A DNA stretch of 64,000 nt from contig JAHFKN010000001.1 of NCBI GenBank assembly GCA_023245355.1, forward strand, positions 203,528 through 267,527, in the 5' to 3' direction. This stretch comes from Candidatus Gottesmanbacteria bacterium. Lineage in GTDB: Bacteria > Patescibacteriota > Microgenomatia > UBA10105 > UBA927. Positions 1 to 34,604 of this stretch are shown piece by piece. The notes under the pieces were generated by a model. The model was given only the letters and a program-made list of their open reading frames with translations. It had not been told where the DNA came from and searched no databases. The translations under genes were made by a program, and so were the position numbers. Each line of letters opens with the position of its first letter. Position 1 is the first letter of the stretch.

Positions 1-171
1 AAAGCGATAAAAGGTGGAAGTCGTGTCGGACAGTTGGCGGTAGATCTCTTCGGTGGATCCGGCAGTACGTTGCTGGCAGCGCACAAATTAGGGCGTGTTT
101 GTTATCTTATGGAGCTTGACCCCAAATTCTGCGATTTGATCAGAAAACGGGCACAAAGGCTCAAAATCTGA
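1..171 (+). CDS. DNA methyltransferase (N4/N6 family), C-terminal fragment; the gene begins upstream of the window
   Basis: Frame 1 translates to KAIKGGSRVGQLAVDLFGGSGSTLLAAHKLGRVCYLMELDPKF... with a stop at 169-171. DLFGGSGST matches the FxGxGxT AdoMet-binding motif of N4/N6 DNA methylases. Confidence 0.6.
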   Translation, partial: KAIKGGSRVGQLAVDLFGGSGSTLLAAHKLGRVCYLMELDPKFCDLIRKRAQRLKI

Positions 172-206
172 GCTTACGCTCGAGTAATGGGCCCGCGTAA
201 TGCCCT

Positions 207-830
207 GTGTGGGCAGATTCAGATCAAGGTGGACCAGTTACACCTAATAAAAAACATATGGCAAAACATAAACCAAAAAAACTGCTAACACTAACTGTTG
301 AGAAGATGCCCGAAGAATCTGAGCAGCAATATGCCGCATGGCTTTTGTACTGCGAAGCTGGGAGTCAAAAGAAGACAATGGACTATTGGGATAAGGTTGG
401 GCAAACCTTGGGTGAAGTTGGTGTGGATTTCGTCCTTCGCCTGGGTAAAAAGCCAAGTCACACAACCATAGAAAATTGGTCAAAAAAATATCGTTGGCCA
501 GAGCGCCGGGACCTACGCCTTGAGGAAGAACTTGTTGAACTAAAGGACAAAGTTGATCGCTTTAGAAAGAAAAGGAAGTATCTGGTGACAGAGCTACTCA
601 TCCAATCTGTGGCTAAGGTGCAAAAACAACTCAAGCAAGCCCCTGTATCAATTCTAGAACTGAAATACTTGTGGGAAATGCATAGGACTGAGTACGACGA
701 ATCAACCGGCAAGACCGAAGTCTCCCACCGTATAGACGAGAGTGAGCAGGTACCACCCACTGACAAGGATCAGGAACTGGGCAGAGAGATAGATACAGCC
801 ATCAAAAAATATTATGACAAACAAAGATAG
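207..830 (+). CDS. Putative terminase small subunit (called by position only; the start may be the internal Met at 255)
   Basis: A 200-aa basic/acidic protein lying directly upstream of the large terminase and overlapping it by 17 nt. No diagnostic motif was seen. Confidence 0.35.
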   Translation: MWADSDQGGPVTPNKKHMAKHKPKKLLTLTVEKMPEESEQQYAAWLLYCEAGSQKKTMDYWDKVGQTLGEVGVDFVLRLGKKPSHTTIENWSKKYRWPERRDLRLEEELVELKDKVDRFRKKRKYLVTELLIQSVAKVQKQLKQAPVSILELKYLWEMHRTEYDESTGKTEVSHRIDESEQVPPTDKDQELGREIDTAIKKYYDKQR

Positions 831-2361
831 AAGCAGTGTCTTACACTGGATACTAAACAACAAAATTAAGAATGAGAACGGCGAGCTTATCGAGTTCGAG
901 GACCACCGCTTCATGCTGGACATCTACGCAGACGAGGCGTCAGTACAGGTTATAAGGAAAGCATCCCAGGTTGGCGCCAGTACAATGGAGATCCTCAAGG
1001 TTATCCATGATTCACGCTTCTGGGGAATAAACCAGATCTATACCCTACCCACCGGGGATGACGTGCAGCAGTTCGTACAAAGCAAGGTAAACCGGATTAT
1101 AAACATCAATCCCTGCATGCTGGATGGTATCAACCCCAAGAGTGTCGACTCCATAGAGCAGAAGCAAATCGGTAAGGCTTTCACTTACTTTAAGGGCACG
1201 TTTACCGAGCGTGAGGCCATCATGCTCTCTTCTGACCGTAACATCCATGATGAGTTGGATAAATCCAAGCCTGAGGTGGTACGCGACTACACCTCGCGTA
1301 TGGGCTATTCCAAAATAAGAAGTCAGCACTTTTTCTCAACGCCAACCATTCCTGATTTTGGAGTGGATAAAATCTTTGAGCAGTCAGACCAGAAATACTG
1401 GCGCTTTAATTGCCCAAGGTGTCAGTACAGACAGCACATGGAGTGGGAGAAAAATGTTGATGAAATCCGGGGCATTTATATCTGCCAGAACTGTAAAAAG
1501 GAAATAATCCCCAAGGAAATCAATGATGGTGGCAGTTGGGAAGCCAAGTACCCTGGTAGACCAATCTCAGGCTACTGGATAAGCCAGCTCCACTGCCCTT
1601 GGAAGACAGCAGCCGATCTAATCAAAGAGAAATCAGATGCTGATGATGACACCTATTTTTATAACTTCGTCCTAGGCCTACCATACCTAGCTGCAGACCA
1701 GAAGATACCAGCCAGCTTATTTCTACGTAATGCTGTGGATAAAGAGGTGGATAACTTCGATGAATATAACGTCATGGGCATAGATACCGGCAAAGGGACT
1801 GGTAAGGGCAACCATGCCATCATAGGCAACCAGAAGGGCATCTTTTGGGTGGGAATCCTGCAAGACCACGAAGGCAATGACCGTTGGCAGCAAGCAGCCG
1901 AGCTAATCACCTTCTTCAACGTCAGGGTGGTCGTCATTGATGGCCAGCCTTATACCGAGGAGGCCTTCCTCTTAGCCAAGCAATTCCCTTATAGGGTGTA
2001 TTTATCATGGTTTAAGGATGACCCCAAGATGCTAGAGGTAATCCGCTTCTTTGACGAGAAGGAAAATAAGGATGCTGAATTTGAGGATGAGGTGAAGGTG
2101 TACTCCTCCCGCACCCGGATCATGGATGACACCATCTCTGCCCTGCGCCGGGGAGACATTAAGTTTGCCATGCCCTCTGACAGCCCTACCTTCAAGCTGC
2201 TTATCACCCATGCCCAAACCATGTACGCCAGAACGGTAACAGACAAACTGGGTCAGGCAAAGCGAGAGTGGGCCAACACTGGTCCAAATGATTTCTGGTT
2301 AGCACTTATTTATTGGCACATTGCCCTACGCAAACGACTTAAATATGAACCAAACAAATAA
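814..2361 (+). CDS. Terminase large subunit (GpA-like ATPase/nuclease)
   Basis: Deviant Walker A KASQVGAST resembles lambda gpA KSARVGYS. Cys pairs CPRCQ...CQNCKK form a zinc-ribbon. Size and position before the portal fit. Confidence 0.6.
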   Translation: MTNKDRSSVLHWILNNKIKNENGELIEFEDHRFMLDIYADEASVQVIRKASQVGASTMEILKVIHDSRFWGINQIYTLPTGDDVQQFVQSKVNRIININPCMLDGINPKSVDSIEQKQIGKAFTYFKGTFTEREAIMLSSDRNIHDELDKSKPEVVRDYTSRMGYSKIRSQHFFSTPTIPDFGVDKIFEQSDQKYWRFNCPRCQYRQHMEWEKNVDEIRGIYICQNCKKEIIPKEINDGGSWEAKYPGRPISGYWISQLHCPWKTAADLIKEKSDADDDTYFYNFVLGLPYLAADQKIPASLFLRNAVDKEVDNFDEYNVMGIDTGKGTGKGNHAIIGNQKGIFWVGILQDHEGNDRWQQAAELITFFNVRVVVIDGQPYTEEAFLLAKQFPYRVYLSWFKDDPKMLEVIRFFDEKENKDAEFEDEVKVYSSRTRIMDDTISALRRGDIKFAMPSDSPTFKLLITHAQTMYARTVTDKLGQAKREWANTGPNDFWLALIYWHIALRKRLKYEPNK

Positions 2362-2569
2362 CCCACCCAAAGTAATAACGGTCCCAGTGACAGAAGCAGA
2401 AGCCAAGATCTTGGCAGACATCCGCCGGGTGAAGTACGGACGAGTGGACGTTTATATCCAGGATGGCAAACCCTACCGTAAAGAAATCGTGGAGCAAGAG
2501 CGTATCACCCCAGAAGAAGGTGGCAGTGCGGGACAGTTCCCCCGCAAACAAGCTGGTATAGAGATTTAA
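2345..2569 (+). CDS. Small protein, DUF2292 (YezD)-like
   Basis: YGRVDVYIQDGKPYRKEIVEQERI resembles the YezD motif GSV.I.V.DGKVV.IE. The start was moved to Met 2345, just after the terminase stop. Confidence 0.3.
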   Translation: MNQTNNPPKVITVPVTEAEAKILADIRRVKYGRVDVYIQDGKPYRKEIVEQERITPEEGGSAGQFPRKQAGIEI

Positions 2570-2678
2570 TTACTCTCCTGACATAGGGATAAATTCACAA
2601 AACCCCAGCAATTCTTATATACTTAGAGCAGGAAAATGTTACTTTTCCCTAACTCGACCGTTTACTTTAATAGAAGCG

Positions 2679-3203
2679 GTGGAGAATGGATTTATTAGTA
2701 TGACGAAACCACCGTTTGAAGAGGTAGTTAAAAACTATATAAAACTAGTTTATTTCTTTGCCAAGAAATCCTTGTCTGATCAGGCAGACGTAGATGACAT
2801 GGTACAAGAAACCTTTTTGAAGGCTATGAAAACATACGATAAATTTAACTTTAAGAGTGAGGGTGAGTTGAAAAGCTGGTTATTAACCATTTGTCGCCAC
2901 CTGATCATCGATCAATTCCGCTCCCGCAAGCATACCGTGACCATGGATGACGAAAAAATGGATCTGTTTGGCAATGGTGAAACAGAAGAACTGCTGGAAG
3001 CCCAAATTGATAAAGAAGATAGCGTAAAGAAAATACAGAAGGCACTCGCCTTGTTAAAACCCACGGAAAAACAAATAATGAATCTGCGTGTATGTGAAGA
3101 GATGGAATTTAAAGAGATCGCCATTGCCCTATGTTCCAAAGAGGCTGCCGTTAAAATGCGATTTTATCGTGCATTAATTAAGCTCAAAGAATCACTGATA
3201 TGA
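2679..3203 (+). CDS. ECF-family sigma-70 factor
   Basis: Region 2 (LLTICRHLIIDQFRSRKH) and region 4 helix-turn-helix (EEMEFKEIAIALCSKEAAVKMRFYRALIKL) are both present. Confidence 0.8.
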   Translation: MENGFISMTKPPFEEVVKNYIKLVYFFAKKSLSDQADVDDMVQETFLKAMKTYDKFNFKSEGELKSWLLTICRHLIIDQFRSRKHTVTMDDEKMDLFGNGETEELLEAQIDKEDSVKKIQKALALLKPTEKQIMNLRVCEEMEFKEIAIALCSKEAAVKMRFYRALIKLKESLI

Positions 3204-4108
3204 AATTCAAAAGTATTATCAAACAAGCATTCGAGAAAGAGGAGCTAAAAGAAGCCAGACACATCGATGATCTGGAGAGCCAAATATTGATGAAGGTCCG
3301 GGCGGAGAAGACAGAAGAAGCAGAACTCAAAAGGTATTTTAGGCCAATAGAATCCTTTTGGAACTTTAAAATTCCGTATGCATTTGCCGTAGCTGTGTTG
3401 GCGGTTATATTCATTACCTTCACCACATCATCTGTTTTGGCAAAGGGTTCGGTCATGGAAATGCTGATAAACCTGAGGAACGCCCTACAACAGGAGCTGT
3501 CGCAGCTATTGAACACTGACCCAACTTATAGAGATAAAGGAACCCAGAAATACCAGCAAGCCCAAAAGGAATGGTGCTTGGTCAGCGCACGACCGGCAGA
3601 GGCGCGTGAGCAGGCGGTAGAAGCCGTAAGGGACTTCTTAGACCGGCCTGATGCCAATGTGGAGTATGAGTGTGTGCGAAACCCAAGCAATAACACGAAC
3701 GAGCAACCACAGACCGAAAGTTATATCGTCGACTTTGACCGCTTTACTATTGATACTCAAACCAATCAAATTACAGAGATGGCACCGACCGGCGGGAGAT
3801 GGGGAGAGAATAAAGACGGTACACGCTGGTTTAGTCCACAGAAGGAATACGACTACACCGCACGATATAGCCAGACTGAGGCAGAACAATTAGCCAGAAC
3901 CTTTATAGCTGACCATGAGAAGGCGTTGGGAAAGATTGATCTAAGCAAACTTACCCTAGAGAGTGGAAAGAAAGACGATGGATCCGGCAAAGTAAACTAC
4001 TTTTTCATCTGGAAAACTGATGGACAGGGTGAGGACATACCCCAGTTAAATATCTCTTATACCCAGGGTGGGCAACTCATCTCCTTCTTGAACGAATTGA
4101 TACACTGA
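3200..4108 (+). CDS. Putative anti-sigma factor, single-pass membrane protein
   Basis: Its start overlaps the sigma-factor stop (ATGA). It has a cytoplasmic N-terminus, one TM helix (YAFAVAVLAVIFITFTT) and a ~200-aa ectodomain. Confidence 0.5.
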   Translation: MKFKSIIKQAFEKEELKEARHIDDLESQILMKVRAEKTEEAELKRYFRPIESFWNFKIPYAFAVAVLAVIFITFTTSSVLAKGSVMEMLINLRNALQQELSQLLNTDPTYRDKGTQKYQQAQKEWCLVSARPAEAREQAVEAVRDFLDRPDANVEYECVRNPSNNTNEQPQTESYIVDFDRFTIDTQTNQITEMAPTGGRWGENKDGTRWFSPQKEYDYTARYSQTEAEQLARTFIADHEKALGKIDLSKLTLESGKKDDGSGKVNYFFIWKTDGQGEDIPQLNISYTQGGQLISFLNELIH

Positions 4109-4341
4109 TCCTGATTTTCTTCAGTAATCACCACTAACAAACAGCACTTGACATTCTCAAACTAATTTGTAATAGTTGATGTATGAGAAGTAAGAATAGT
4201 AAGTATTTACTTATACTACACACGCTTCGTTATCTCTTCCATAAGACATCCAGTGATTGTTCCCAAAACTCCCTTCCTTTGACAACCCAGGTTATTAGTA
4301 ATAACTGGGTTTATTTATAAATTAGTGCTTATAGAAAGGAG

Positions 4342-5145
4342 GTGAAAAATAAAAAAGCTATGAAGTATCCAAAAAGAATGTTAGTAATTCTTCCCCTACT
4401 TGCTGTCTCCGCTTTTGTCGGCTTCGGTCTCGCAAAGACTGATACCGTCGGCGCACAGCAAGACCCAAAACAGGCGAGGATAGAAACTCTGCAAAAGAAG
4501 TACCTAGACGCAGTCGAAAATGCTAAGACAAATGGTGAGTTCACCACGAACCAATTCGGCGAGAAAGTCTACGCTGGTAAAACAGCTGACGACCTAAAGA
4601 GTCTAGAGAAAGAGGTTGGTACTGAGATACGAGAACTGACAGCGCGTCCCGCTGCGGATAGAGCCAAGGCCGTTGAAGCCGTCAATGGATGGAATGATAA
4701 ATTCCTCTATACGATAGATAATCAGCCAAAGCAAACTCTCCAATATGCTGGTCGGTCAGGACAAGTTCAAGGCAGCAAACTCATTGGCGCAGAGCGGTAC
4801 TTTTCGGAAGACTATCAATTCACAATCGACCCGCAAACCAACAAAATCGTTGAGATGTATCTACGTCCCAAAGAAGTTGGCGAACCGGCAGCGTTCGAAG
4901 ACATGACCCCACGCTTTACCGAAGCTCAGTTAGAGCAAAAAGCCCGACAATTGATCGAGGCACAAAACTTAGGCGTGAATCTAAGCTCTTTGAAGTTCGA
5001 GAAAAACCATAAGGTAGGAACCTTTTTCTACACATGGGAAGGTGAAAAGATAGCAGACGGAGTACAACCCTCGCTTTACGTGGCATTCACGCAAGGTGGG
5101 CAACTGATCGGCTACATCAACGCAGGCTTTTTTGACAAACTATGA
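4342..5145 (+). CDS. Secreted protein, paralog of the anti-sigma ectodomain
   Basis: Signal peptide MKYPKRMLVILPLLAVSAFVGFGLA. Shares blocks with the 3200..4108 ectodomain: ARPAADRAKAVEAV vs ARPAEAREQAVEAV, FTIDPQTNKIVEM vs FTIDTQTNQITEM, FTQGGQLIGYIN vs YTQGGQLISFLN. Confidence 0.6.
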   Translation: MKNKKAMKYPKRMLVILPLLAVSAFVGFGLAKTDTVGAQQDPKQARIETLQKKYLDAVENAKTNGEFTTNQFGEKVYAGKTADDLKSLEKEVGTEIRELTARPAADRAKAVEAVNGWNDKFLYTIDNQPKQTLQYAGRSGQVQGSKLIGAERYFSEDYQFTIDPQTNKIVEMYLRPKEVGEPAAFEDMTPRFTEAQLEQKARQLIEAQNLGVNLSSLKFEKNHKVGTFFYTWEGEKIADGVQPSLYVAFTQGGQLIGYINAGFFDKL

Positions 5146-5765
5146 AAAACATATTTTCAAAAATCTTAATAGCATTGGCGGTGATAGCGGTCATGGGCTT
5201 TACCAGCGTGAGTAGTGCATTGGCCTTTGGCGATGCATCTATTTACTGCACGGGTGGTGGCTACTTTGACAAATTCGGCCCCAGCCAATACTGGTCCGAA
5301 TTTACGAGTATGGGATGGTGTAACGCCCCAGCTGGCAACAACTGGTGCGAGAATGGACAATGTGCCCAAAACTCACCCTACAATACTGTGACTCGCAGTA
5401 TGTGGAGAACCTACTCAGGGAGTCAACAGAGTAACTACGCCCGTTGGAATATGGGTAACGATGGTGGTTATTGGTACTGGTTTGCCTTTATACCAAGTAA
5501 CTATGCGACCACCTCGAGGGCGCCGTATACGATTACCTACGCGGGTGGGAGCCAATACAACTTCACTGTTAACCAGAATGCTTATTCAAACATCTGGGTA
5601 ACTCCTGGTTCACGAACTGAGAATTTCACTCAGATCATGAATACATGGTTATCTGATGCGACGAGCGAAAGCCCGTCTCAGCAAATTGGTTTTGATGAGG
5701 TTCAGAAATGTTCTGAAGCAAGTCAATACAGTGCTTATTGTCCAGGCAACCATACCAGAAGGTAA
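5142..5765 (+). CDS. Secreted Cys/Trp/Tyr-rich protein, unknown function
   Basis: Signal peptide ILIALAVIAVMGFTSVSSALA. Start is translationally coupled to the previous gene (ATGA). The mature part is rich in C, W, Y and N. Confidence 0.5.
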   Translation: MKNIFSKILIALAVIAVMGFTSVSSALAFGDASIYCTGGGYFDKFGPSQYWSEFTSMGWCNAPAGNNWCENGQCAQNSPYNTVTRSMWRTYSGSQQSNYARWNMGNDGGYWYWFAFIPSNYATTSRAPYTITYAGGSQYNFTVNQNAYSNIWVTPGSRTENFTQIMNTWLSDATSESPSQQIGFDEVQKCSEASQYSAYCPGNHTRR

Positions 5766-5848
5766 TGGAGGAAGGTCAGGGCCAGCCCGTCAAAAGGCTG
5801 GCCTGACCCAGCAGAGAAAGAATATTTAAACTAAAATAAAAATGCAAT

Positions 5849-6391
5849 ATGAGAAATAAAAAGATAAACATCAAGGAAATAATCCTGATCGCTATTGCCT
5901 GCCTGGTAGTGACAACTGGCTCATATGCGATCTTTACCCATAAAGACAGTAGATTTGAGGCGGTAGACTTGGCCAACAGAACCGAGGATAAAGGAGTAGA
6001 AGATTACTTTGTCGAGAAACTTGGTATGAACGGCGAAGAAGCCAAGAAGTTTGCCGATCAAGGGGTGTCGTTTTATATCACTGGCACTACCAACCTGGAT
6101 GCTATTATCAGCAATCTCCATTACTATGGCCTGATTAAGGACGAGAAGGCCTTCAGAGAGGCATTGGCAAAAACTAAAGACACGCTGCCCGGTAATGAGA
6201 ATGCAATTAAAATAGGTAACAACACTATTGATATTCACGCTTACTATGGCCTGAAGAAGGGGCTCACCGCCTGGCAAGTAGCAGATGTACTACTTAATCA
6301 CCCGGTTTATTTGAAGGGTGAGGAATATAATTACATGTTTATGCCCGGAGAGTACTATGGTGATGCTGCCCAGAACACACCAGCACGATGA
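5849..6391 (+). CDS. Secreted or membrane-anchored protein, unknown function
   Basis: N-terminal hydrophobic segment IILIAIACLVVTTGSYAIF. Same strand as the rest of the cassette. Confidence 0.4.
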   Translation: MRNKKINIKEIILIAIACLVVTTGSYAIFTHKDSRFEAVDLANRTEDKGVEDYFVEKLGMNGEEAKKFADQGVSFYITGTTNLDAIISNLHYYGLIKDEKAFREALAKTKDTLPGNENAIKIGNNTIDIHAYYGLKKGLTAWQVADVLLNHPVYLKGEEYNYMFMPGEYYGDAAQNTPAR

Positions 6392-6416
6392 TAGTAAAAT
6401 TTAGTAGAATACGCTT

Positions 6417-6986
6417 ATGAAGTTAAAAACATTTTTAGTCTGTATCGCAACAATTATTGCCTTAGGTTTTATCATTAAAAACTTCACTGGCAATAACTCA
6501 AAGCAGTCACCCTCCCCTGCGCCTGCTGAGGTAACCAAAACCACACCTGATGCTGTACTGAAACCAGGTAGATCTCTCAAACCAAACGAGGAGTTTATAT
6601 CACCCTTCGGTTTATATGTAACTGTCCCCAAAGATATGACCTTCAGAAAAGAAGTAGCTGACGATGAAGGTATTATTCGTACAGTTGGGTTTTATATCGA
6701 AAACAGCAGTAAAGATAATCCCTATATGCTGTACGGATTATACGAAGCCAAAAATGTCGCCATTGATCAAACCATGGCAAGTGCCAAAAAAGATATGGTC
6801 GCCTCGACAATTAAAGACATAACAATCGGCGGGTATAAAGGTGTCGAAGGATTAATAACCGGCGACAAAACCAGATATATGGCAGTCATCGTCAAAGACG
6901 GCAAAAAGATCACCTTCTCGACTATTCCACCAACCGAAAGCAATAAAGTCATCACTGATCAGCTCCTCTCCACCTTCAGTTTTTAA
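6417..6986 (+). CDS. Secreted or membrane-anchored protein, unknown function
   Basis: N-terminal hydrophobic segment FLVCIATIIALGFII followed by a Ser/Pro-rich linker. Confidence 0.4.
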   Translation: MKLKTFLVCIATIIALGFIIKNFTGNNSKQSPSPAPAEVTKTTPDAVLKPGRSLKPNEEFISPFGLYVTVPKDMTFRKEVADDEGIIRTVGFYIENSSKDNPYMLYGLYEAKNVAIDQTMASAKKDMVASTIKDITIGGYKGVEGLITGDKTRYMAVIVKDGKKITFSTIPPTESNKVITDQLLSTFSF

Positions 6987-7050
6987 ATAACTTCTGACAG
7001 AAACGTTCTTGAAACAGACAATCTTCCCTTTGTAATATTGAAGCATAACT

Positions 7051-7124
7051 AGTTAGCCTAACGAATCAGTCGGGGCTTAGATTTATTTATTCGTAAAGAA
7101 TAGATGAACCTAAGCCCCTTTTTT
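7051..7124 (+). promoter_or_regulatory. Conserved box (GTTAG-C-CTAAC GAA N4 TCGGGGCT), long hairpin and U-run; copy 1
   Basis: Box at 7051-7076. Hairpin ggggcttag (7072-7080) pairs with ctaagcccc (7110-7118), then tttttt at 7119-7124. The same layout recurs at 14381-14461. Confidence 0.45.
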
Positions 7125-8978
7125 GTTATCTCTATGCCAGAAGTCATTGAAGAAAAAATATCAACCGAAAAAAACTACCAGCCTACCCCTGAAGAAGAAA
7201 AACTACTCATAAAATGGAAGGCCAGATTTAAACGTGCTAAAGAATTCCGTGAACCTTACCAAGCCAAGTGGTTGCGGATGTACCAACTCTACCGTGCCTA
7301 TCAACACAAGCAGAACTACGCTTATAACACCCGGCTGATGCCGCCGATCGCTTTTGAGATTGTTAAAACAGTGGTCTCTCGGTTGGCCACCGCTAAGCGC
7401 AAGACCACTATTATTCCCAGACACCAAGAGGATGTGAATTCAAAGGCATTAGGATCTTGGGGAAATCTGGTCAACTACGACTTTGACATTATTGATCTGA
7501 TCAAACGATTGCCTAACTGGATCGAATCTTCCGTTCTTTATGGAAACGGTATCGTTAAGCTTGCCTGGAAAGTCCTGAGTCGAAACGGCAAGGTAGTCTA
7601 TGACGATCCAACCATGGGACTTATTGACCTATGGGAACTGCTCCCAGCTCCAGAGACTGCAGATGACCTCCAGGATGGTTGCCCGTGGCTGATTCATCGT
7701 ATCGTTAAGCGGAAGGAAAAGATTGAAAAAGAAGAAACTGCCCGAGGTGAAAATAATATTTATAAGAACCTGGAGTTTTGTGAGCCGAAAATTGTTGAGG
7801 ATTGGAAAAAGGAACGGTATGAAATAAACGGTAAGAAAATGTCTCAGGTGGATGCCGGTACCAAGAAAGATGGTGGCGATGAGAAAATTGTCCCGGCCAA
7901 GTCAGACACCGAAAAACAACTAGAACTGTGGGAGTGTTGGGACTATGAAGAAGATAAACTGGTCGTTATTTGTAATGGCGAAATTCTTATTAGGGATGAC
8001 GAGAACCCATATCTGGGAGTAAACAACGGTCACATCTATGTTGACCTACCCGACATGCCACTCCTCTGGGAATTCTGGGCCACTGGCCATATCGAACCCG
8101 TCGAGACGACCATTCATGAAGTTGCTGACCTTAGAAACCAACGAATGGATGATGTGGTCTTAATGCTCGATCCTGTCGTTAAAATTCGTAAGGATTCCGG
8201 TATAACTAAAAACGATATCATCTTCTCTCCCGGCGCGACCTGGGAACTGAGAAAAATGGATGATGTGGTTATCGAAAGGCCACCAGAAATAAGCTTGATG
8301 GGAGTAAATGAAGATAAAATTATGCGAGATGAGATCTCCCGAACTCTGGCGCTTGGTGAATATATGCAAGGACAACCTCAGTCCCCCAATGAGCCGCTCG
8401 GGAAAGTGGCGGTGCTACTTGGTCAGAGTAACCTCCGATTAAGTATGAACGCCCAAAACATCGCGGTAGCACTAACCACAGTGGCCAATATCTTAATTCA
8501 ACTGAACCAGGAGTTTATAACGGAAGACAAATTATACCGGTTGGTAGGGAAAGAAGTCGACTTCAATGAGTTTAAAAAGGATGACAAAAAAGTGGTTGTG
8601 GACGCCATTGTTGAGGTGGAGCCGATTATACCTCCGGATAAAACCACGAGACTAAATCAAGTCCTTCTGATGTACGACAAGTTTATCGCCCAGGATAAGC
8701 CGGATCCGAACAATCCAGGGGAAGTAACACGCTGGTTGAAGCGTAAGCGCGAGCTTCAGAAGATGATTCTGGAAGAGCTGGATAAAGAGGAATATATAGA
8801 TGTGTTGCTGGGTCCGGAAGCAGAAGCTATGGCTCCACCTCAAACTAATAACGCACAAGCCCCCGTAACGCCAGCTGAGGGCCAAACTACACCAACAGAG
8901 CCAACTACAGCAGGTCCAAACAAAATTCAGCAGCTTATGGGAAAAATTCCAATTTTAGGGAAAATGCTGGGTGGTTAA
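7104..8978 (+). CDS. Portal (head-to-tail connector) protein; true start may be Met 7134
   Basis: About 620 aa, N-terminal EPYQAKWLRMYQLYR-type helix, Ala/Pro/Thr/Gln-rich C-terminus, placed between terminase and capsid. The track start contains the hairpin 3' arm and U-run. Confidence 0.5.
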   Translation: MNLSPFFVISMPEVIEEKISTEKNYQPTPEEEKLLIKWKARFKRAKEFREPYQAKWLRMYQLYRAYQHKQNYAYNTRLMPPIAFEIVKTVVSRLATAKRKTTIIPRHQEDVNSKALGSWGNLVNYDFDIIDLIKRLPNWIESSVLYGNGIVKLAWKVLSRNGKVVYDDPTMGLIDLWELLPAPETADDLQDGCPWLIHRIVKRKEKIEKEETARGENNIYKNLEFCEPKIVEDWKKERYEINGKKMSQVDAGTKKDGGDEKIVPAKSDTEKQLELWECWDYEEDKLVVICNGEILIRDDENPYLGVNNGHIYVDLPDMPLLWEFWATGHIEPVETTIHEVADLRNQRMDDVVLMLDPVVKIRKDSGITKNDIIFSPGATWELRKMDDVVIERPPEISLMGVNEDKIMRDEISRTLALGEYMQGQPQSPNEPLGKVAVLLGQSNLRLSMNAQNIAVALTTVANILIQLNQEFITEDKLYRLVGKEVDFNEFKKDDKKVVVDAIVEVEPIIPPDKTTRLNQVLLMYDKFIAQDKPDPNNPGEVTRWLKRKRELQKMILEELDKEEYIDVLLGPEAEAMAPPQTNNAQAPVTPAEGQTTPTEPTTAGPNKIQQLMGKIPILGKMLGG

Positions 8979-8983
8979 AATGA

Positions 8984-9373
8984 TCAGATGCTTTCTTGAT
9001 TGTGTGAAGCCAATTTAGAATCCTTAACGTTCCCAGTATTTAACGTACCTTTGGGCTCAATAAGAACTATGTGGACTTCTTCTTTTGCCTCGGGCTTGTG
9101 CTCGATTGGGTGGGGAATAATCACAAATTCACCCTCGTTTACTTGAACATCTTTATCTCGGAAATGAATTGTTAGTTGTCCCTTGATTACAAGAAATAAC
9201 TCATCTTCATTGTCGTGATGGTGCCAAACAAACTCTCCCTTGAGCTTTACAACTTGAACCTTATGGTTATTTAATTCACCGACGATCTTTGGATTCCAAT
9301 ACTCACTAAACAACGAGAGTTTATCTGCAATATTTACAACTTTCACGGAATAAGAGGTATTTTTCATAATCAT
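8984..9373 (-). CDS. Cupin-domain protein
   Basis: Cupin motifs: HHHDNEDELFLVIKG, then ...GEFVIIPHPIEH. Confidence 0.65.
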   Translation of the reverse strand: MIMKNTSYSVKVVNIADKLSLFSEYWNPKIVGELNNHKVQVVKLKGEFVWHHHDNEDELFLVIKGQLTIHFRDKDVQVNEGEFVIIPHPIEHKPEAKEEVHIVLIEPKGTLNTGNVKDSKLASHNQESI

Positions 9374-9439
9374 GAATATTGTAACAATTTTCTACATGAT
9401 TTGCTAGACTATATCAGTTGTAAGCAGTAACATAAGAAC

Positions 9440-10285
9440 ATGAACTACATAATTCGTCCAGCTACACGTAAGGAATTGTGTATCCCGATTGAGTGGGCGG
9501 CTAAAGAAGGTTGGAACCCAGGTCTTTTTGATGCTCGCGCTTTTTATTCTACGGATCCTCAAGGCTTTTTATTAGGATTGCTTGATGGAGAACCAATTGC
9601 TTCGATCTCGTCCGTTGCATATGATTCTAGTTTCGGTTTTCTTGGGTTTTATATTGTTAAACCCGAATATCGCGATAAAGGGTATGGCATTCAAATTTGG
9701 AATGCAGCAATAAAACATTTACCCACGCAAAACATTGGTCTAGATGGTGTACTAGCTCAACAGGAAAACTACAAAAAATCCGGTTTCAAATTAGCATATA
9801 GAAACATAAGATACGAAGGAATGGGTACTAGTGCTCATCAAGTGGATAATCCAAGTGTAATCCCCTTATCAAGCATTCAATTTGAACAGCTTTTTAAATA
9901 CGATAATCAAGTTTTTCCAACAAGCAGATCGGTATTTCTAAAAGAGTGGATCAAGCAATCGGAAAGCTTGGCAGTTGCTTACCAAAAAGATGGAAACCTA
10001 CTTGGATATGGGATGGTGAGAAAATGCCGAATCGGATATAAAGTGGGCCCTTTATTTGCTGACAATAAAGACATTGCAGATGTACTCTTTCAGAAAATGA
10101 GGTCTTTTGTTGGTCAAGATAAGCAAATATTTCTAGATACCCCAGGAGTAAATAAATCAGCAATTTTATTAGCTGAGAAGTATGGAATGAAACCAGTGTT
10201 TGAAACTGCCCGCATGTATACTAAAGACGTACCAAAAGTACAACTCAAAAAGGTTTTTGGAGTAACAACTTTTGAACTTGGATAA
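9440..10285 (+). CDS. GNAT-family N-acetyltransferase (two-lobed)
   Basis: GFYIVKPEYRDKGYGIQIWNAAIKH matches the acetyl-CoA binding motif A (R/Q-x-x-G-x-G/A). Confidence 0.6.
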   Translation: MNYIIRPATRKELCIPIEWAAKEGWNPGLFDARAFYSTDPQGFLLGLLDGEPIASISSVAYDSSFGFLGFYIVKPEYRDKGYGIQIWNAAIKHLPTQNIGLDGVLAQQENYKKSGFKLAYRNIRYEGMGTSAHQVDNPSVIPLSSIQFEQLFKYDNQVFPTSRSVFLKEWIKQSESLAVAYQKDGNLLGYGMVRKCRIGYKVGPLFADNKDIADVLFQKMRSFVGQDKQIFLDTPGVNKSAILLAEKYGMKPVFETARMYTKDVPKVQLKKVFGVTTFELG

Positions 10286-10305
10286 GCATCTTGAACACGT
10301 TAAAT

Positions 10306-10333
10306 TTGACAAAAGACGAATTTTTTGTATAAT
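10306..10333 (+). promoter_or_regulatory. Sigma-70-type promoter with extended -10
   Basis: TTGACA at 10306-10311, a 16-nt spacer, then TGTATAAT with TATAAT at 10328-10333. Confidence 0.55.
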
Positions 10334-10339
10334 ATACTC

Positions 10340-10500
10340 AATACTTAGCTGTGAAGGTCTTTGGCAAGCTGGAGCTGAGCATTCTAAAAGCGGTCTGAAC
10401 TTAAGCGATTATCGATAGTACAGACAATTAGGGTGGAACCACGGGTTAAAAGAAAACTCGTCCCTTTGTATAAGAAATTATATGAAGTGACGAGTTTTTT
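10340..10500 (+). promoter_or_regulatory. T-box riboswitch leader 1 (transcription-terminating type)
   Basis: Core AATTAGGGTGGAACCACGG at ~10426-10444. A terminator follows: cucguc...gacgag stem then UUUUUUU at 10494-10500. Stem-I-like ggcaagctggagc carries a GGC (Gly) triplet. Confidence 0.6.
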
Positions 10501-10671
10501 TGTTACTTCATATAACGACAAGTTAATAGTAGCGATGAAAGGCCTGGCAACCTGGAGCTACACCAACAGTTAAAGAGGGTAAGTTTACTGGAAATCATGA
10601 CTTACCAATTAGGGTGGAACCGCGACCATATATGGCCGTCCCTAAGCGAAAGCTTATGGAGGCATATATGG
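10501..10671 (+). promoter_or_regulatory. T-box riboswitch leader 2 (candidate translational, SD-sequestering type)
   Basis: Second core AATTAGGGTGGAACCGCGACC at 10607-10627. ccatatatggcc (10626-10637) can pair with ggcatatatgg (10661-10671), burying SD GGAGG (10658-10662) and ATG 10668. No U-run follows. Confidence 0.5.
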
Positions 10672-11921
10672 ATACACAACCATACTACAAAACAATAATT
10701 GAACAGATTGACAAGCATACTGCTTATAGGCAGGAATGCCTTAATCTGATCGCTTCAGAAAATGTCTGCAGTCCTGCTGTGGCCAAGATTCTATCTTCTG
10801 ATTTAACCAATCGTTACTCTGTTGGACGTCCTCGCGCGAGATGGTTCCCAGGATTACAGTACTACGACAAAGTTGAGGAAATTGCGGAAAAGCTTTCACA
10901 AAAACTATTCCATGTCCAGTATGCCAATGTTCAAGCCCCTACGGGAATGGTGGCTAATATGGCCGCTTATTTAGCGGTGCTTAAACCCAACGACCTGGTG
11001 TTAGCTCTGCGCGTTAAACACGGAGGACACTATAGTCATGTTGCCGAGAATATATTCAAAAGCTTCAACATCCGCGTTGAGGATCTTCCCTTTGATGAAC
11101 AGTCATATTCTGTAGACATTGAGAGAGCCATTGATCTCATTAGGGTTAAGAAACCACAAATGATTATTCTTGGAACTTCGGAGTTTTTATTCCCAGCACC
11201 CATTAGAGAATTAAGGCAGGTGTGCAACAAAACAAACACTAAAATTCTTTATGATGCCTCACATGTCTCAGGACTCGTGGCTGGACAAACTTTCCAAAAT
11301 CCAATGGCAGAAGGAGCAGATATTCTCACAATGAGCACCAATAAGACATTGGCTGCCCCAAGTCATGGACTTGTGGCCTGCAACGACACAGTCAAGTATC
11401 AGGCTGACTTTGAACATGCAATTACCCCTCTCCTAACGTCAAATCACCATGCGCACCATGTCGCTGCTTTGGCCATGACCTTGGCAGAGTTTGATGTTTT
11501 CGGACACGAATACGCTGCTCAAATTATTATGAATGCAAAAACTTTGGCACGAGCCCTTTATAACCAAGGGGTAAAGGTTTTATGCCCTGAAAAGGATTTT
11601 ACCGAGAGTCACACTGTTTTGATTGATACTGTGACCTCATCAAAAGAAGCAGTGCAGAAGTTGGCTGAGGCAAACATTATGACAAATTCGTTTCAACTTC
11701 CCTGGAATGAAGATGGGTTTGAAAGTGGAATCCGAATAGGAACAAACGAAATAACCAGACTTGGAATGAAAGAGTCAGAGATGAATGTTGTTGCCGATTT
11801 AATAGCAGCTGTTTTATTGAAAAAACAATCGATCGCTGAGATTAAACGGAAAGCACAAAATCTTAGATTGTCTTATCAGACAGTTAATTATTGTTTTAAT
11901 CCAGCTCAATTAAGTAGCTGA
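10668..11921 (+). CDS. glyA: Serine hydroxymethyltransferase-like PLP enzyme
   Basis: LIASENVCSPAV matches SHMT LIASENF; HGGHYSHV matches GGHLTHG; STNKTL sits at the PLP-lysine position. Start set at Met 10668 behind GGAGG. Confidence 0.7.
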   Translation: MDTQPYYKTIIEQIDKHTAYRQECLNLIASENVCSPAVAKILSSDLTNRYSVGRPRARWFPGLQYYDKVEEIAEKLSQKLFHVQYANVQAPTGMVANMAAYLAVLKPNDLVLALRVKHGGHYSHVAENIFKSFNIRVEDLPFDEQSYSVDIERAIDLIRVKKPQMIILGTSEFLFPAPIRELRQVCNKTNTKILYDASHVSGLVAGQTFQNPMAEGADILTMSTNKTLAAPSHGLVACNDTVKYQADFEHAITPLLTSNHHAHHVAALAMTLAEFDVFGHEYAAQIIMNAKTLARALYNQGVKVLCPEKDFTESHTVLIDTVTSSKEAVQKLAEANIMTNSFQLPWNEDGFESGIRIGTNEITRLGMKESEMNVVADLIAAVLLKKQSIAEIKRKAQNLRLSYQTVNYCFNPAQLSS

Positions 11922-11935
11922 AGGAGGTAAATTAT

Positions 11936-12478
11936 ATGGCAAAACCAGAACAGTCAGAATCAATGCAAGAATTCGAACAACGCTGTATTGAGACAGTGAA
12001 GCGAATGCGTGCTCAGGCTCACAAGGTGTTAGATAGGGCTGGAACAGTTCATAAAGCTCAACCGCTCAAGAAGTGGGAAAAGATTGTTTATCCCCTTCTG
12101 GGAATGAAGCCCGAAGGTTATATGGAGTTTGATTCGGCCAACGATCCACGATTAGCGATCGTCACAAGGGCGGCTGCTGGAGGACTGGTAACCCCAAGAG
12201 TTAGAGTTCTGGCACCATCTGAAAGAAACGAAATGTCAGCTATGGAAGTTCGACTGTCCGGCAAACAGCCAGAGACTGGAAGAAATGTCGACATCATGAG
12301 TGTTGACCTCCCAGAGGGATCAAATAGTGCAGTACAAACAAAAGTAATTTTGTGGACCGCACCCTTACCAGGGAGGATTCCATTTTATGAAGTCATGGAT
12401 TCAAACTTTGCCGAAGTAGTAGACTTAACAATAAGAACTCTGGAACACATTAATAAATGTTTATCTGAAAGGAAATAA
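11936..12478 (+). CDS. Hypothetical protein between glyA and glyQS
   Basis: ORF with a GAAGGAGG ribosome-binding site, sitting in the same operon. No motif recognised. Confidence 0.45.
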   Translation: MAKPEQSESMQEFEQRCIETVKRMRAQAHKVLDRAGTVHKAQPLKKWEKIVYPLLGMKPEGYMEFDSANDPRLAIVTRAAAGGLVTPRVRVLAPSERNEMSAMEVRLSGKQPETGRNVDIMSVDLPEGSNSAVQTKVILWTAPLPGRIPFYEVMDSNFAEVVDLTIRTLEHINKCLSERK

Positions 12479-12480
12479 AT

Positions 12481-13860
12481 ATGGACACAACAATGCAAAA
12501 AATCGTCAGTTTATGTAAAAGAAAAGGGTTTGTTTATCCAAACTCTGAAATTTACGGAGGAATTCAGGGGTTCTATGATTACGGACCACTAGGAGCCGAA
12601 CTACAAAATAACATCAAGCGGGTTTGGTGGAAATGGATGACCCAACTCCATGATGATGTCTATCCAATTAACGGAGCAATCATCACCCATCCGAAGGTTT
12701 GGGAAGCATCAGGACACGTTCAGAACTTCACCGATCCGTTAGTCGACTGCAAAAAATGTCATAAACGTTTCCGAGCCGATCACTTGGTTGAGGAATTCCT
12801 CACAGAGGATGCTGGAACTGCTAGTCAAAATCGCTTGGATCAGATAGCAGCAGAACTTAAATCAAGACACATTGTTTGCCCTGAGTGTGGAGGAGAGTTT
12901 ACCGAGGTCCGCAAATTCAATCTTATGGTTGAAACTTCCCTTGGGGTTGTTGAAGGCGAAAAGATGACGGCTTATCTCAAGGGGGAGGCATGCCAAACGA
13001 TCTACCTGGATTACCAGAATGTGCTTAATTCGACTAATGCCAAAATTCCTTTTGGGATATGTCAAATCGGGAAGGCTTTCAGAAATGAAATCACCCCAGG
13101 ACATTTTTTATTTCGTCAGCGTGAGTTTGAACAGTGGGATCTCCAATGGTTTACCAATCCCAAAGAAATGGATAAATGGTATGAGTACTGGAAAGCAGAA
13201 AGAATGATGTGGTATCAAAGCCTAGTGAATCATAAAGATCGTCTGCGCTTTAGACAACACGATCAAAACGAACTTGCTCATTACGCGAAAAAGGCATTCG
13301 ATATCGAGTATGAGACTCCATTTGGATGGAAAGAATGGGAAGGAATCCACTGGCGTGGAGACTGGGATTTGTCCCGTCATGGGCAATACAGTGGGAATGA
13401 TTTTACCTATACTGATCAAAAAACAGGTGATAAATTTATTCCTTGGATTGTCGAAACATCAGGAGGAGTTGATCGCACTTTCCTTTTCCTGCTCATTGAT
13501 GCTTACGATGAAGAGGTCGTAGATGGGAAAACGAGAGTGGTTCTACATTTACGACCAGACCTAGCTCCGTACAAAGTAGCGGTCTTCCCGTTGGTATCCA
13601 ACAAAGAAGATATTGTCGAAAAGGCAAAGTCAATCTACAGAGCATTAAAACCTAGCATTGCAACCATTTGGGACGATATCGGGAATGTTGGAAAGAGATA
13701 TCGAAGACAAGATGAAGTTGGTACTCCGTGGTGTGTCACGGTTGATTACCAAACACTTCAGGACGATACGATAACAGTTCGAGATCGAGACACTATGAAA
13801 CAAGAAAGAGTGAAGGTATTAGATCTGGAATACTTTTTTGCCGAGAAGTTGAAAATTTAA
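12481..13860 (+). CDS. glyQS: Glycine--tRNA ligase (dimeric class II GlyRS)
   Basis: Class II motif 2 QIGKAFRNEITPGHFLFRQREFEQWDLQWF. N-terminal GFVYPNSEIYGG...YDYGPLG is typical of alpha2 GlyRS. Confidence 0.85.
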   Translation: MDTTMQKIVSLCKRKGFVYPNSEIYGGIQGFYDYGPLGAELQNNIKRVWWKWMTQLHDDVYPINGAIITHPKVWEASGHVQNFTDPLVDCKKCHKRFRADHLVEEFLTEDAGTASQNRLDQIAAELKSRHIVCPECGGEFTEVRKFNLMVETSLGVVEGEKMTAYLKGEACQTIYLDYQNVLNSTNAKIPFGICQIGKAFRNEITPGHFLFRQREFEQWDLQWFTNPKEMDKWYEYWKAERMMWYQSLVNHKDRLRFRQHDQNELAHYAKKAFDIEYETPFGWKEWEGIHWRGDWDLSRHGQYSGNDFTYTDQKTGDKFIPWIVETSGGVDRTFLFLLIDAYDEEVVDGKTRVVLHLRPDLAPYKVAVFPLVSNKEDIVEKAKSIYRALKPSIATIWDDIGNVGKRYRRQDEVGTPWCVTVDYQTLQDDTITVRDRDTMKQERVKVLDLEYFFAEKLKI

Positions 13861-13867
13861 AACAGGA

Positions 13868-14254
13868 TTACTCATCGTACTGGCTTAGAAGTGCTTCCAA
13901 GATGGGGTGGATTTGTCTGTCGACCATCAACCTCCCCTTTTCGGTATCCTTAATGACACCCGTTTCTTTTGCTATCTGCAGAAGTCGTGAGATTTCCTCA
14001 TCTCTCAGTGGTTTACCTTCGTCATCAACTCCAACAACCGCTTTATACGCAGCTTCATCAAATGTTGCTGGTTCAGGTGCAAATGGGGCTAGATAGAGAA
14101 TGCCTGTTAGAACTCTCTCTCTGCCTGCATTTCCAAATAGTTGTCTATCTTTTTCTGTGAGCAATGAATCTGCAATCAATTCAAATTGAGCCCTAGTAGT
14201 ATCAGGTTTTAAAAGTTGTCCAAGTTTTGGTAATGGTTGTTCGGCTTTTTCCAT
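13868..14254 (-). CDS. Hypothetical protein
   Basis: 128-aa ORF on the minus strand, reading toward the gly genes. No motif recognised. Confidence 0.35.
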   Translation of the reverse strand: MEKAEQPLPKLGQLLKPDTTRAQFELIADSLLTEKDRQLFGNAGRERVLTGILYLAPFAPEPATFDEAAYKAVVGVDDEGKPLRDEEISRLLQIAKETGVIKDTEKGRLMVDRQIHPILEALLSQYDE

Positions 14255-18681: not shown

Positions 18682-19005
18682 GTGAAAACGATGCAAACAA
18701 ACGATGCAACACTATTACAAACAATTTTAGAAGCCATAGCTGCCAGTCCTGACAAAGTGATAGTTGAAAGAACAGTCGATGAAATGGGGGTATTACTGAA
18801 AGTCAAAGTCGATGAAAAAGATGCCGGAGCGGTGATTGGTAAAGAAGGTGCCACTATAGCGGCGATCCGAAAATTGATGGGCGTTTTCGGAAGGAAAAAT
18901 AATGCTCGGATAAACATCAAGTTAGATGTTCCGCCCAGAAAGAAATTAAAAACGTATGAAAAACCAAGTATTGAAGATCAAAACCACGATACAGGAAAAC
19001 TCTGA
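18682..19005 (+). CDS. KH-domain RNA-binding protein (KhpA/YlqC-like)
   Basis: GAVIGKEGATIAAIRKLM is the KH GxxG loop. Size and layout match KhpA. Its 3' end overlaps the track start of the next ORF by 50 nt. Confidence 0.5.
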   Translation: MKTMQTNDATLLQTILEAIAASPDKVIVERTVDEMGVLLKVKVDEKDAGAVIGKEGATIAAIRKLMGVFGRKNNARINIKLDVPPRKKLKTYEKPSIEDQNHDTGKL

Positions 19006-34530: not shown

Positions 34531-34604
34531 GCCTCCTTAGCTCAACGGCAGAGCAGCGGTATCGTAAACCGTAGATGTCAGTCCAATTCTGACAGGGGGC
34601 TCCA
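34531..34604 (+). tRNA. tRNA-Thr (anticodon CGU) with a non-canonical T-loop
   Basis: Manual fold: acceptor GCCTCCT/AGGGGGC, D-arm TAGCTCAACGGCAGAGC, anticodon stem GCGGT/ACCGT with loop ATCGTAA, T-stem GTCAG/CTGAC with loop TCCAATT, then TCCA. Confidence 0.55.

Follow-up and report, generated by a model that had tools for sequence, protein, structure and literature searches.

In Bacillus subtilis, the extracytoplasmic function (ECF) sigma factors SigW, SigV and SigX consist of regions 2 and 4 only and are coupled to partners encoded directly downstream (RsiW, RsiV and RsiX), which have a cytoplasmic N-terminus, one transmembrane segment and an external domain; their promoters carry an 'AC' in the -35 and a 'CGT' in the -10 element. 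RsiV acts as a lysozyme receptor. A pair with the same gene arrangement, predicted topology and promoter type was found in a 64,000-nt stretch of DNA from a Candidatus Gottesmanbacteria bacterium (assembly GCA_023245355.1, contig JAHFKN010000001.1, positions 203,528 to 267,527 of the forward strand; in the following the window, from whose first nucleotide positions are counted). It belongs to a six-gene cassette between the genes for the large terminase (TerL) and the portal protein of a prophage, which encodes an ECF sigma factor, a membrane protein as its putative anti-sigma factor (the 3200 protein) and four exported or anchored proteins (the 4342, 5142, 5849 and 6417 proteins). Unlike the B. 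subtilis pairs, this pair is encoded by a prophage of the candidate phyla radiation (CPR), its partner has no recognised anti-sigma domain and a cytoplasmic tail with relatives only in its own family, the presumed sensor is modelled as a tandem PepSY fold, and no regulon was detected beyond the operon of the pair.

In Bacillus, the lytic transglycosylase SleB is embraced and inhibited by YpeB through its PepSY domains (bioRxiv 10.64898/2026.06.01.729290). The 3200 protein resembles YpeB of Bacillus spores in having a membrane anchor followed by predicted PepSY repeats, and in relatives of the prophage the gene of a transglycosylase (MltG) lies adjacent. It differs in that the enzyme is of the MltG/YceG type, the sequence identity is about 14%, no Pfam PepSY match is obtained, a putative sigma-binding tail is present and sporulation is not involved. 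A host ECF sigma factor of B. subtilis, SigX, alters the wall to block phage (bioRxiv 10.1101/2021.02.16.428622).

The pairing of a phage ECF sigma factor with an extracytoplasmic partner had been called unusual in a preliminary description of the window, but it is not unique. In the Clostridioides phage phiSemix9P1 (KX905163.1; our locus L072, 3462-5597), sigM (phi39), a temperate-phage ECF sigma factor 31.5% identical to that of the window, overlaps by 8 nt the gene (phi38) of a 234-aa protein that spans the membrane once and has a DUF4367 ectodomain (6e-17), and a signal-peptide protein follows. The pair is not annotated as a system and is, on sequence grounds, a candidate phage sigma/anti-sigma pair in an isolated phage; the general design is not peculiar to the cassette. 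It differs from the cassette in the DUF4367 ectodomain, in its location in a plasmid-like maintenance region (RepB, ParA) and in lacking the set of four exported proteins. In the literature we found no description of an anti-sigma factor with a PepSY sensor, of a prophage ECF sigma factor with a PepSY anti-sigma factor, or of sigma-bearing CPR prophages.

Two further systems are comparable. Like the morons of lambda (bor, lom) and HK97-type phages, the cassette is an extra unit between virion genes, with its own promoter, bounded by a terminator, absent from related phages and with envelope-directed products; it is larger (six genes), contains a signal-transduction pair, is conserved clade-wide and forms the fixed end of a variable hotspot of defence islands. 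Like attenuators of the pyrBI type, the leader in front of the exported-protein genes comprises a promoter, a short open reading frame (ORF; 39-52 codons) maintained in frame, a terminator hairpin inside its 3' end and the ribosome-binding site (RBS) of the first gene. Here the leader ORF seems to begin at or beside the transcription start and would then be leaderless, no obvious regulatory codons and no link to a nucleotide pool are seen, and no Rfam family is matched.

To compare the cassette with its relatives, 41 viral loci were collected via TerL and portal, 26 genome loci via the anti-sigma family and additional contexts via exact-protein look-ups; TerL served to fetch 22 related viral loci (loci carry L numbers). 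Six relatives with TerL about 50% identical (L015-L019, L021) have no cassette, and their TerL and portal genes are just 200-650 bp apart. Because TerL adjoins the portal in these distant relatives, the same-strand genes of about 4.5 kb (2570-7124) that part the two in the window were read as an insertion. The cassette is, judging from this gene order, a clade-specific insertion in an originally contiguous packaging block, in agreement with the preliminary description, whose cassette elements were all found at or near the positions it had given. In relatives with TerL 77-96% identical the order TerL, 82-aa ORF, sigma, membrane protein, 4342, 5142, 5849, 6417 is kept, L009 being the exception, and the identities of the cassette proteins range from 97% down to about 30%. 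More than 15 distinct loci, on independent contigs from metagenomes and genomes, show this order, which is therefore neither a chance arrangement nor an assembly artefact. The intermediate relatives L012-L014, L009 and L067 contain other cargo at the junction, and the 82-aa ORF follows TerL in sigma-bearing as well as in sigma-less relatives (L009, L064, L067). Direct repeats flanking the insertion were looked for, and none were found. With promoter-like sites at 2594-2662 and 4148-4176, a terminator at 7072-7124 and presence or absence among related phages, the cassette has the make-up of a moron. A known anti-phage defence system was considered and rejected: among the PADLOC profiles, the sigma factor gave a marginal match to MzaA (5.7e-4) and the other five cassette proteins and the 82-aa ORF gave none.

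The first gene of the cassette is, by domain content and score, a member of the ECF group (group 4) of the sigma-70 family, as first described: the product contains regions 2 and 4 only, is 167-174 aa long and reaches 99.8 bits with TIGR02937 (sigma70-ECF; cut-off 42.9), besides matching phrog_1740 'RNA polymerase sigma factor' (4e-25). Its start was placed at the ATG equivalent to 2700 by the gene calls of the relatives and by alignment. ECF-like sigma factors were claimed to be rare in phages, and indeed only 45 of 50,697 sequenced-phage records match that of the window, all at 31.5% identity or less; a homologue of the membrane partner was sought in these 45 records and was found in none.

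Upstream of the sigma gene, every locus contains an ECF-type promoter of the form AAATGTTACTTTT-N-CCGTTTACTT (TGTTAC-N15/16-CGTT). Across 14 aligned loci AAATGTTACTTTT and CCGTT are invariant, the flanks vary and the spacer differs by one base. The motif occurs once in the 64-kb window, before the sigma gene (0.4 sites expected by chance), and once per sigma-bearing locus, invariably ahead of sigma. The conserved position suggests that the sigma factor is autoregulated, as presumed in Table 1, and the MltG gene that follows the anti-sigma gene after about 70 nt in relatives is probably a further target. A TATAAT box is near-invariant in 13 relatives at the place equivalent to the sigma-70-like promoter of the window, at a variable distance upstream of the ECF-type motif. 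The motif TAAGA(A/T)AAGTAAGAA was seen repeatedly just past the -10 elements of several promoters in the prophages, in some cases together with a GTAAG...CTTAC hairpin (L003 minus strand around 15659, L005 around 15490, L011 around 16587, and upstream of sigma in most loci); this could be an operator or initially transcribed element that they share.

The TGA stop of the sigma gene overlaps the ATG of the 3200 gene as ATGA, an arrangement kept in all 19 distinct sigma/partner pairs. The 3200 protein contains a single hydrophobic segment (residues 62-80). Its AlphaFold2 model, built with 40 homologues, has a mean confidence (pLDDT) of 80, exceeding 90 in the ectodomain, and comprises a long N-terminal helix (residues 2-46; the tail as a whole is modelled as a single long helix with pLDDT 58-79), the membrane segment, a helical stalk and two alpha+beta repeats, the tandem alpha+beta arrangement of the PepSY fold. 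Two invariant cysteines in the ectodomain fit an external location, and nine members of the family weakly match DUF4901, the YcdB/YcdC repeat. Two architectures were distinguished in the alignment. Homologues linked to a sigma factor carry a cytoplasmic tail of 55 aa, which is confined to them and contains invariant positions across sigma/partner pairs that are 60-94% identical, whereas copies in other CPR elements consist of a signal anchor and the same ectodomain. Outside its own family the tail has no relatives among 1.8 billion representative proteins (phmmer). Coupling by ATGA, position and topology are hallmarks of a cognate anti-sigma factor and make binding of the sigma factor by the 3200 protein a putative but plausible function; the protein might work like known anti-sigma factors and yet fall outside their families. 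Every full-length homologue with an examined context adjoins the same terminase, which removes the initial concern that homologues confined to non-phage contexts would betray a misjoined contig.

Tail-less PepSY homologues from Nomurabacteria (L028/L060 10001-10891 and neighbours) were noticed in another mobile-looking element, which contains an integrase, a resolvase, helix-turn-helix (HTH) genes and a homologue of the window's 'TerS' at 48% identity, and which adjoins the gene of a 1696-aa M48-peptidase protein.

In about half of the sigma-bearing relatives, the closest one included, a full MltG endolytic transglycosylase is encoded between the anti-sigma gene and the leader of the exported-protein operon, directly after the anti-sigma gene (L001, L002, L006, L011, L020, L026, L048, L049, L052, L054). 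The phage MltG scores 129 bits with TIGR00247 (cut-off 103) and is 54% identical to the YceG protein encoded elsewhere in the window. MltG is also found at the junction of sigma-less relatives (L009, L012-L014, L038-L042), in L009 and likewise in sigma-less L065 beside a PepSY protein. A parsimonious history would be that MltG came first, followed by the PepSY partner and the other exported proteins, and that the sigma factor and the tail on one PepSY copy were added last. The YceG/MltG gene of the window (32600-33598, minus strand) lies about 2 kb past the last recognisable phage gene and could be either a host gene or phage cargo.

The four exported-protein genes appear to form a unit of their own. 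The preliminary description had treated the six genes as one cassette, but control of all of them by the sigma factor is not supported: no ECF-type promoter was found ahead of these genes, and a sigma-70-like promoter precedes them, whose -35 box, spacing and distance to the next ATG are kept in about 14 divergent loci. In L064 (the complete Woesebacteria genome CP055307), homologues of 4342, 5142 and 5849, with another PepSY protein taking the fourth position, lie between TerL and portal without a sigma gene, and the sigma unit and the exported-protein unit are therefore separable.

A conserved ATGAGAAGTAAGAA follows the -10 box of this promoter at a distance of exactly 6 nt, and its ATG opens a small ORF. 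The ORF has 39-52 codons and is open in 14 of 14 divergent variants (0 stops; the two alternative frames contain 37 and 73), indels between lineages preserve its frame, and in 13 of the 14 variants it ends within the U-tract of a terminator. The hairpin is kept in 14 loci, two of which (L047, L048) show compensatory changes; folded as a single sequence it is weak (dG -10.7, z -1.3). No Rfam family was matched in the leader (4100-4340). This layout looks like an attenuator in which translation through the terminator prevents termination, a candidate and possibly new element, and the transcript may be leaderless. A further conserved box, AATCACCACTAA(C/T)AAACAG, was observed just 5' of the -35 element.

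Each of the four proteins contains one N-terminal hydrophobic segment. They had been called signal-peptide proteins; an A-x-A cleavage-type site was recognised by eye only in the 5142 protein, the others might be signal anchors, and 'exported or anchored' is therefore safer than 'secreted'. The 4342 protein (hydrophobic segment 13-31) aligns at 31% identity with the 3200 protein over residues 128-298 of the latter (E about 1e-15 to 1e-17), and a profile built from A1 matches its orthologue in L064. The signal-like N-terminus of the 5142 protein contains ALA-FG; among its relatives one cluster carries a precomputed PF25275 assignment, and the remote relative P0172 fuses a Peptidase_M23 domain to PF25275. 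The 5849 protein resembles MltG according to local profile matches and a Pfam trace: its profile matches the MltG ORFs of L014 (8.5e-4) and L040 (2.9e-5), and a second 5849 paralogue lies beside the MltG gene in L006; aligned to the YceG of the window by hhalign, the family gives a weak probability of 9%. The 6417 protein has a PsbP/Tsi3-like fold. No significant family was found for the 3200, 4342, 5849 and 6417 proteins in Pfam, PHROGs, NCBIfam or PADLOC, the search of the 5849 and 6417 proteins against PDB sequence profiles returned only noise, and that of a viral structure library nothing informative. PepSY, Golvesin_C-like, MltG N-terminal-like and PsbP/Tsi3-like folds are repeatedly met in partners or inhibitors of enzymes that act on the envelope and on peptidoglycan. 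The hairpin between 5142 and 5849 has a counterpart at the equivalent position in L005 and L011.

A strong terminator lies where the preliminary description had placed a hairpin closing the cassette. It belongs to the 5' flank of the portal gene instead: when cargo of 10-12 kb is inserted, the terminator stays beside the portal and not beside the cassette, and it therefore insulates or gates the portal operon and is not part of the cassette. It is conserved with compensatory changes in L003, L007 and L023. In many relatives a further 10-12 kb, and in one contig about 23 kb, lie between the 6417 homologue and the portal, and with defence islands inserted, TerL and portal are up to about 18 to 28 kb apart. 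The cargo of the closest relative comprises Gabija (GajA, GajB), a Cas4-like nuclease and what, from reading the sequences, is probably a restriction system of type I; another relative encodes a type III restriction enzyme, and L026 encodes AbiEii with an MmeI-like enzyme.

Gene content, folds, conservation, the promoter motif and operon architecture are observed; from them we infer that sigma and anti-sigma bind, that the sensor has a ligand, that a regulon exists and that the lysogen benefits. Our preferred reading, held tentatively, is that of a moron-like module for sensing and protecting the cell wall, with an autoregulated sigma/anti-sigma switch, in temperate SU10-type phages of Microgenomates; the cassette most likely monitors or tames wall cutting in the lysogen rather than running phage late genes. 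The short cytoplasmic helix of the 3200 protein would hold the sigma factor, and its PepSY sensor would report the state of a peptidoglycan-cleaving enzyme, which might be the phage MltG where relatives encode it (about half of them), the host MltG in the present case or an incoming lysin; wall damage is an equally possible input. Once the ectodomain is engaged, displaced or degraded, the freed sigma factor would amplify its own operon, together with MltG where the gene is present. The second unit, expressed from its own sigma-70-like promoter and gated by the small-ORF/terminator leader, would provide the four exported or anchored proteins, which might bind, restrain or redirect wall cleavage at the surface of the lysogen. 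The lysogenic-conversion or surface-sensing role originally proposed is plausible to this extent, since the element is an integrated prophage and a surface module expressed in lysogeny is therefore plausible, but not as a single cassette under the sigma factor. In relatives the cassette is directly followed by defence islands (Gabija, restriction-modification, AbiE), which are typical of cargo expressed in lysogeny and fit a lysogen-protective role.

Several observations weigh against this reading. The cassette lies on the same strand as the late genes and could equally be expressed in lytic growth. In the window the 334-aa MltG gene is missing by a clean indel (4108-4126, compared with 11693-12785 in L001; the approximately 210 nt upstream of 4342 are nearly identical in both), so that this cassette does not itself encode the proposed ligand. 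Relaxed scans of the window and of all fetched loci revealed no second conserved ECF-type site; with a single motif and these empty scans, the only visible sigma target is therefore its own operon. The 3200 protein matches no anti-sigma family (zf-HC2, RskA, ASD) in Pfam or NCBIfam, and its tail contains no zinc-binding motif and no cysteine, so that of the anti-sigma function first proposed for it the position, translational coupling and topology stand but family membership and a Cys/His motif do not; faint DUF4179 matches were obtained with 5 of 40 homologues. Pfam PepSY (PF03413) gave no match to the 3200 protein at E<=0.1 and is not among 25 families that a scan of 40 homologues at E<=1 listed, so that the protein is assigned to PepSY by its modelled fold and not by the Pfam model.

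The strand and the MltG genes would also suit a lysis-control module of the lytic cycle, which we consider doubtful. MltG would then be a membrane-tethered endolysin, held inactive by the PepSY and other exported proteins as PepSY domains do with a lytic transglycosylase in Bacillus, and the sigma pair would time or amplify late expression. MltG is indeed the commonest cargo at the junction, also in the sigma-less relatives listed above, whose TerL is 61-79% identical. Yet the window and about half of the sigma-bearing relatives lost MltG and kept the rest, relatives with about 50% TerL identity have no cassette, a separate amidase-type lysin domain is encoded at 18956-20611, and own promoters, a flanking terminator and neighbouring defence islands suit lysogenic cargo better. 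Some phages use sigma factors of their own for late genes, and the SU10/phiEco32-type capsid and portal as well as the phrog_1740 match would agree with a middle- or late-gene factor like gp36 of phiEco32 or the SPO1 sigmas, the membrane protein being unrelated to its control. We regard this as very improbable and rejected it, as the portal, capsid and tail genes are not preceded by an ECF-type promoter, and sister phages that share the structural genes (L009, L064, L067) have no sigma factor; the strict ATGA coupling likewise points to a sigma/anti-sigma pair.

It is unlikely that the 3200 protein is just a co-transcribed PepSY envelope protein and that the sigma factor is controlled otherwise or constitutively active. 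The missing anti-sigma signatures, the moderate confidence of the modelled tail helix and the PepSY proteins of the same family that occur without any sigma factor would be explained in this way, but not the restriction of the 55-aa extension, with its invariant positions, to sigma-linked copies, nor the universal ATGA overlap in a canonical ECF arrangement. About as improbable is a more specific version of the sensing mechanism, in which the PepSY ectodomain, fused to an orphan sigma-binding helix, would make a receptor-type ECF switch of CPR phages that binds a peptidoglycan-cleaving enzyme directly (MltG, a lysin brought by a superinfecting phage, or one encountered where a partner cell is touched) and releases the sigma factor as RsiV does, with the leaderless attenuator, of a kind not described before, governing the adjacent operon; a prophage would then give a regulator-poor, genome-reduced episymbiont a sense of envelope damage and a wall-protection response. 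It is hardly credible that the arrangement results from a chimeric assembly or is the decaying remnant of a host operon without phage function, and this reading was rejected. Homologues of the cassette proteins are limited to CPR genome bins, which would agree with it, but the recurrent order, the intact proteins at 30-65% identity, the conserved regulatory motifs and the constant neighbourhood of the same terminase contradict it.

The genomes of CPR bacteria (Patescibacteria) are tiny and encode few regulators, and little is known of their virome. What appears to be a widespread family of temperate Microgenomates phages, seen in no fewer than 26 species-level genomes and over 100 protein clusters, here imports a full envelope signal-transduction pair and wall-directed proteins beside a defence-island hotspot, and if the module works as proposed in our preferred reading, prophages would supply their hosts with sensing and wall-protection functions that are otherwise missing. 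The 3200 protein would be a natural example of how an anti-sigma factor is built, a short tail having been added to an existing extracytoplasmic inhibitor domain, and the cassette offers a compact sigma/promoter pair open to testing as well as a candidate new attenuator.

Table 1. Features of the cassette and its surroundings (window positions unless a locus is named).
Feature	Position	Strand	Evidence or remark
ParB-methylase, C-terminal end	34-171	+	
TerS	207-830	+	phrog_6299
TerL, left flank, phage core	814-2361	+	phrog_675 2.1e-90; Pfam GpA_ATPase 1.1e-14
82-aa conserved ORF overlapping the end of TerL; phage core, outside the cassette	2321-2569	+	weak DUF2292 match alone
Predicted sigma-70-like promoter upstream of sigma, TTCACA-18-TATACT	2594-2623	+	consensus scan
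Presumed autoregulatory ECF-type promoter, TGTTAC-N16-CGTT	2637-2662	+	conservation in relatives
ECF sigma factor, 167 aa from ATG	2700-3203 (ORF open from GTG 2679)	+	Pfam Sigma70_r2 4.2e-17, r4_2 2.6e-8
Putative anti-sigma factor, 302 aa	3200-4108	+	cytoplasmic helix of about 55 aa, transmembrane segment 62-80, helical stalk, YpeB-like tandem PepSY ectodomain (about 150-300)
Predicted sigma-70-like promoter, TTGACA-17-AATAGT with TG	4148-4176	+	scan
Small ORF, 45 codons, putative leaderless leader peptide	4183-4320	+	runs through the terminator
Intrinsic terminator/attenuator	stem 4284-4311, U-rich tract to 4320	+	just before the GGAGG RBS of 4342
4342 protein, PepSY paralogue of the anti-sigma ectodomain, no cytoplasmic tail	4342-5145	+	alternative start ATG 4360
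5142 protein, secreted, Cys-/Trp-rich, Golvesin_C-like domain	5142-5765	+	Pfam Golvesin_C 4e-5, below curated cut-off
GC-rich hairpin without U-run, between 5142 and 5849	5774-5808	+	dG -26.3, z -3.1
5849 protein, membrane-anchored, like the N-terminal non-catalytic part of MltG/YceG	5849-6391	+	weak Pfam YceG match, profile positions 2-64
6417 protein, membrane-anchored, Pro/Ser linker, Mog1p/PsbP-like domain	6417-6986	+	
Strong intrinsic terminator just 5' of portal	stem 7072-7118 and U6, to 7124	+	dG -29.6 kcal/mol, z -7.3, 0/200 shuffles as good
Portal, right flank, phage core	7134-8978	+	Pfam SU10_portal 4.5e-6; phrog_332/1216
Defence islands between cassette and portal in relatives	L001 15650-19941 and L044 1-10000 (one contig); L011/L035; L026 14967-21020		

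The element is a prophage integrated into the chromosome of a Microgenomates (CPR) bacterium: downstream of about 31 kb the window is ordinary chromosome, encoding YceG, glycosyltransferases, ParB, FtsW, IleRS, FtsZ, FtsA and MurG. The right end of the prophage may lie at the tRNA-Thr gene at 34531-34604. Downstream of the portal, whose identity among the relatives is 43-87%, the phage genes include an SU10-type capsid gene (8e-41), an amidase-domain protein, a tail fibre and a 1451-aa protein. A nucleotide search of positions 1-12000 against sequenced phages gave zero matches, and TerL is at most 26% identical to that of any isolated phage. Homologues of the cassette proteins are confined to Patescibacteria/Microgenomates bins, with Shapirobacteria, Daviesbacteria, Woesebacteria and Nomurabacteria among the source names and contigs of up to 1.37 Mb; several metagenome-assembled genomes with homologues are labelled 'Gammaproteobacteria' or 'Pseudomonadales', and these labels were taken to be wrong. 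The nearest relatives are the Shapirobacteria UBA2283 contig DDWP01000020.1, with cassette proteins 82-97% identical, and a Woesebacteria-labelled contig of 808 kb.

The listed start of the portal gene, ATG 7104, lies within the loop of the terminator hairpin, and alignment to the relatives places the real start at ATG 7134. Between 7009 and 7133 a promoter-like TTGAAA-18-TAATAT, a conserved box GCCTAACGAATC and the strong terminator precede the portal gene, and this promoter-leader-terminator layout resembles that of late operons needing an antiterminator. A second cargo block was seen at 8984-14254, between the portal and scaffold/capsid genes, with a cupin gene (minus strand), a GNAT acetyltransferase, serine hydroxymethyltransferase (SHMT), a 180-aa ORF, glycyl-tRNA synthetase (GlyRS) and a minus-strand ORF; its content differs in relatives, for example MazE-like, ABC/FtsX and HTH genes in L023. 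Tandem T-box-like leaders (10282-10468 and 10526-10646) lie upstream of the SHMT (10614-11921) and GlyRS (12481-13860; NF003211, 620 bits) genes. With 40 and 47 bits they stay below the gathering threshold of Rfam (93), yet they carry the canonical AGGGUGGAACCGCG box, and the phage-borne SHMT/GlyRS operon is probably glycine-responsive.

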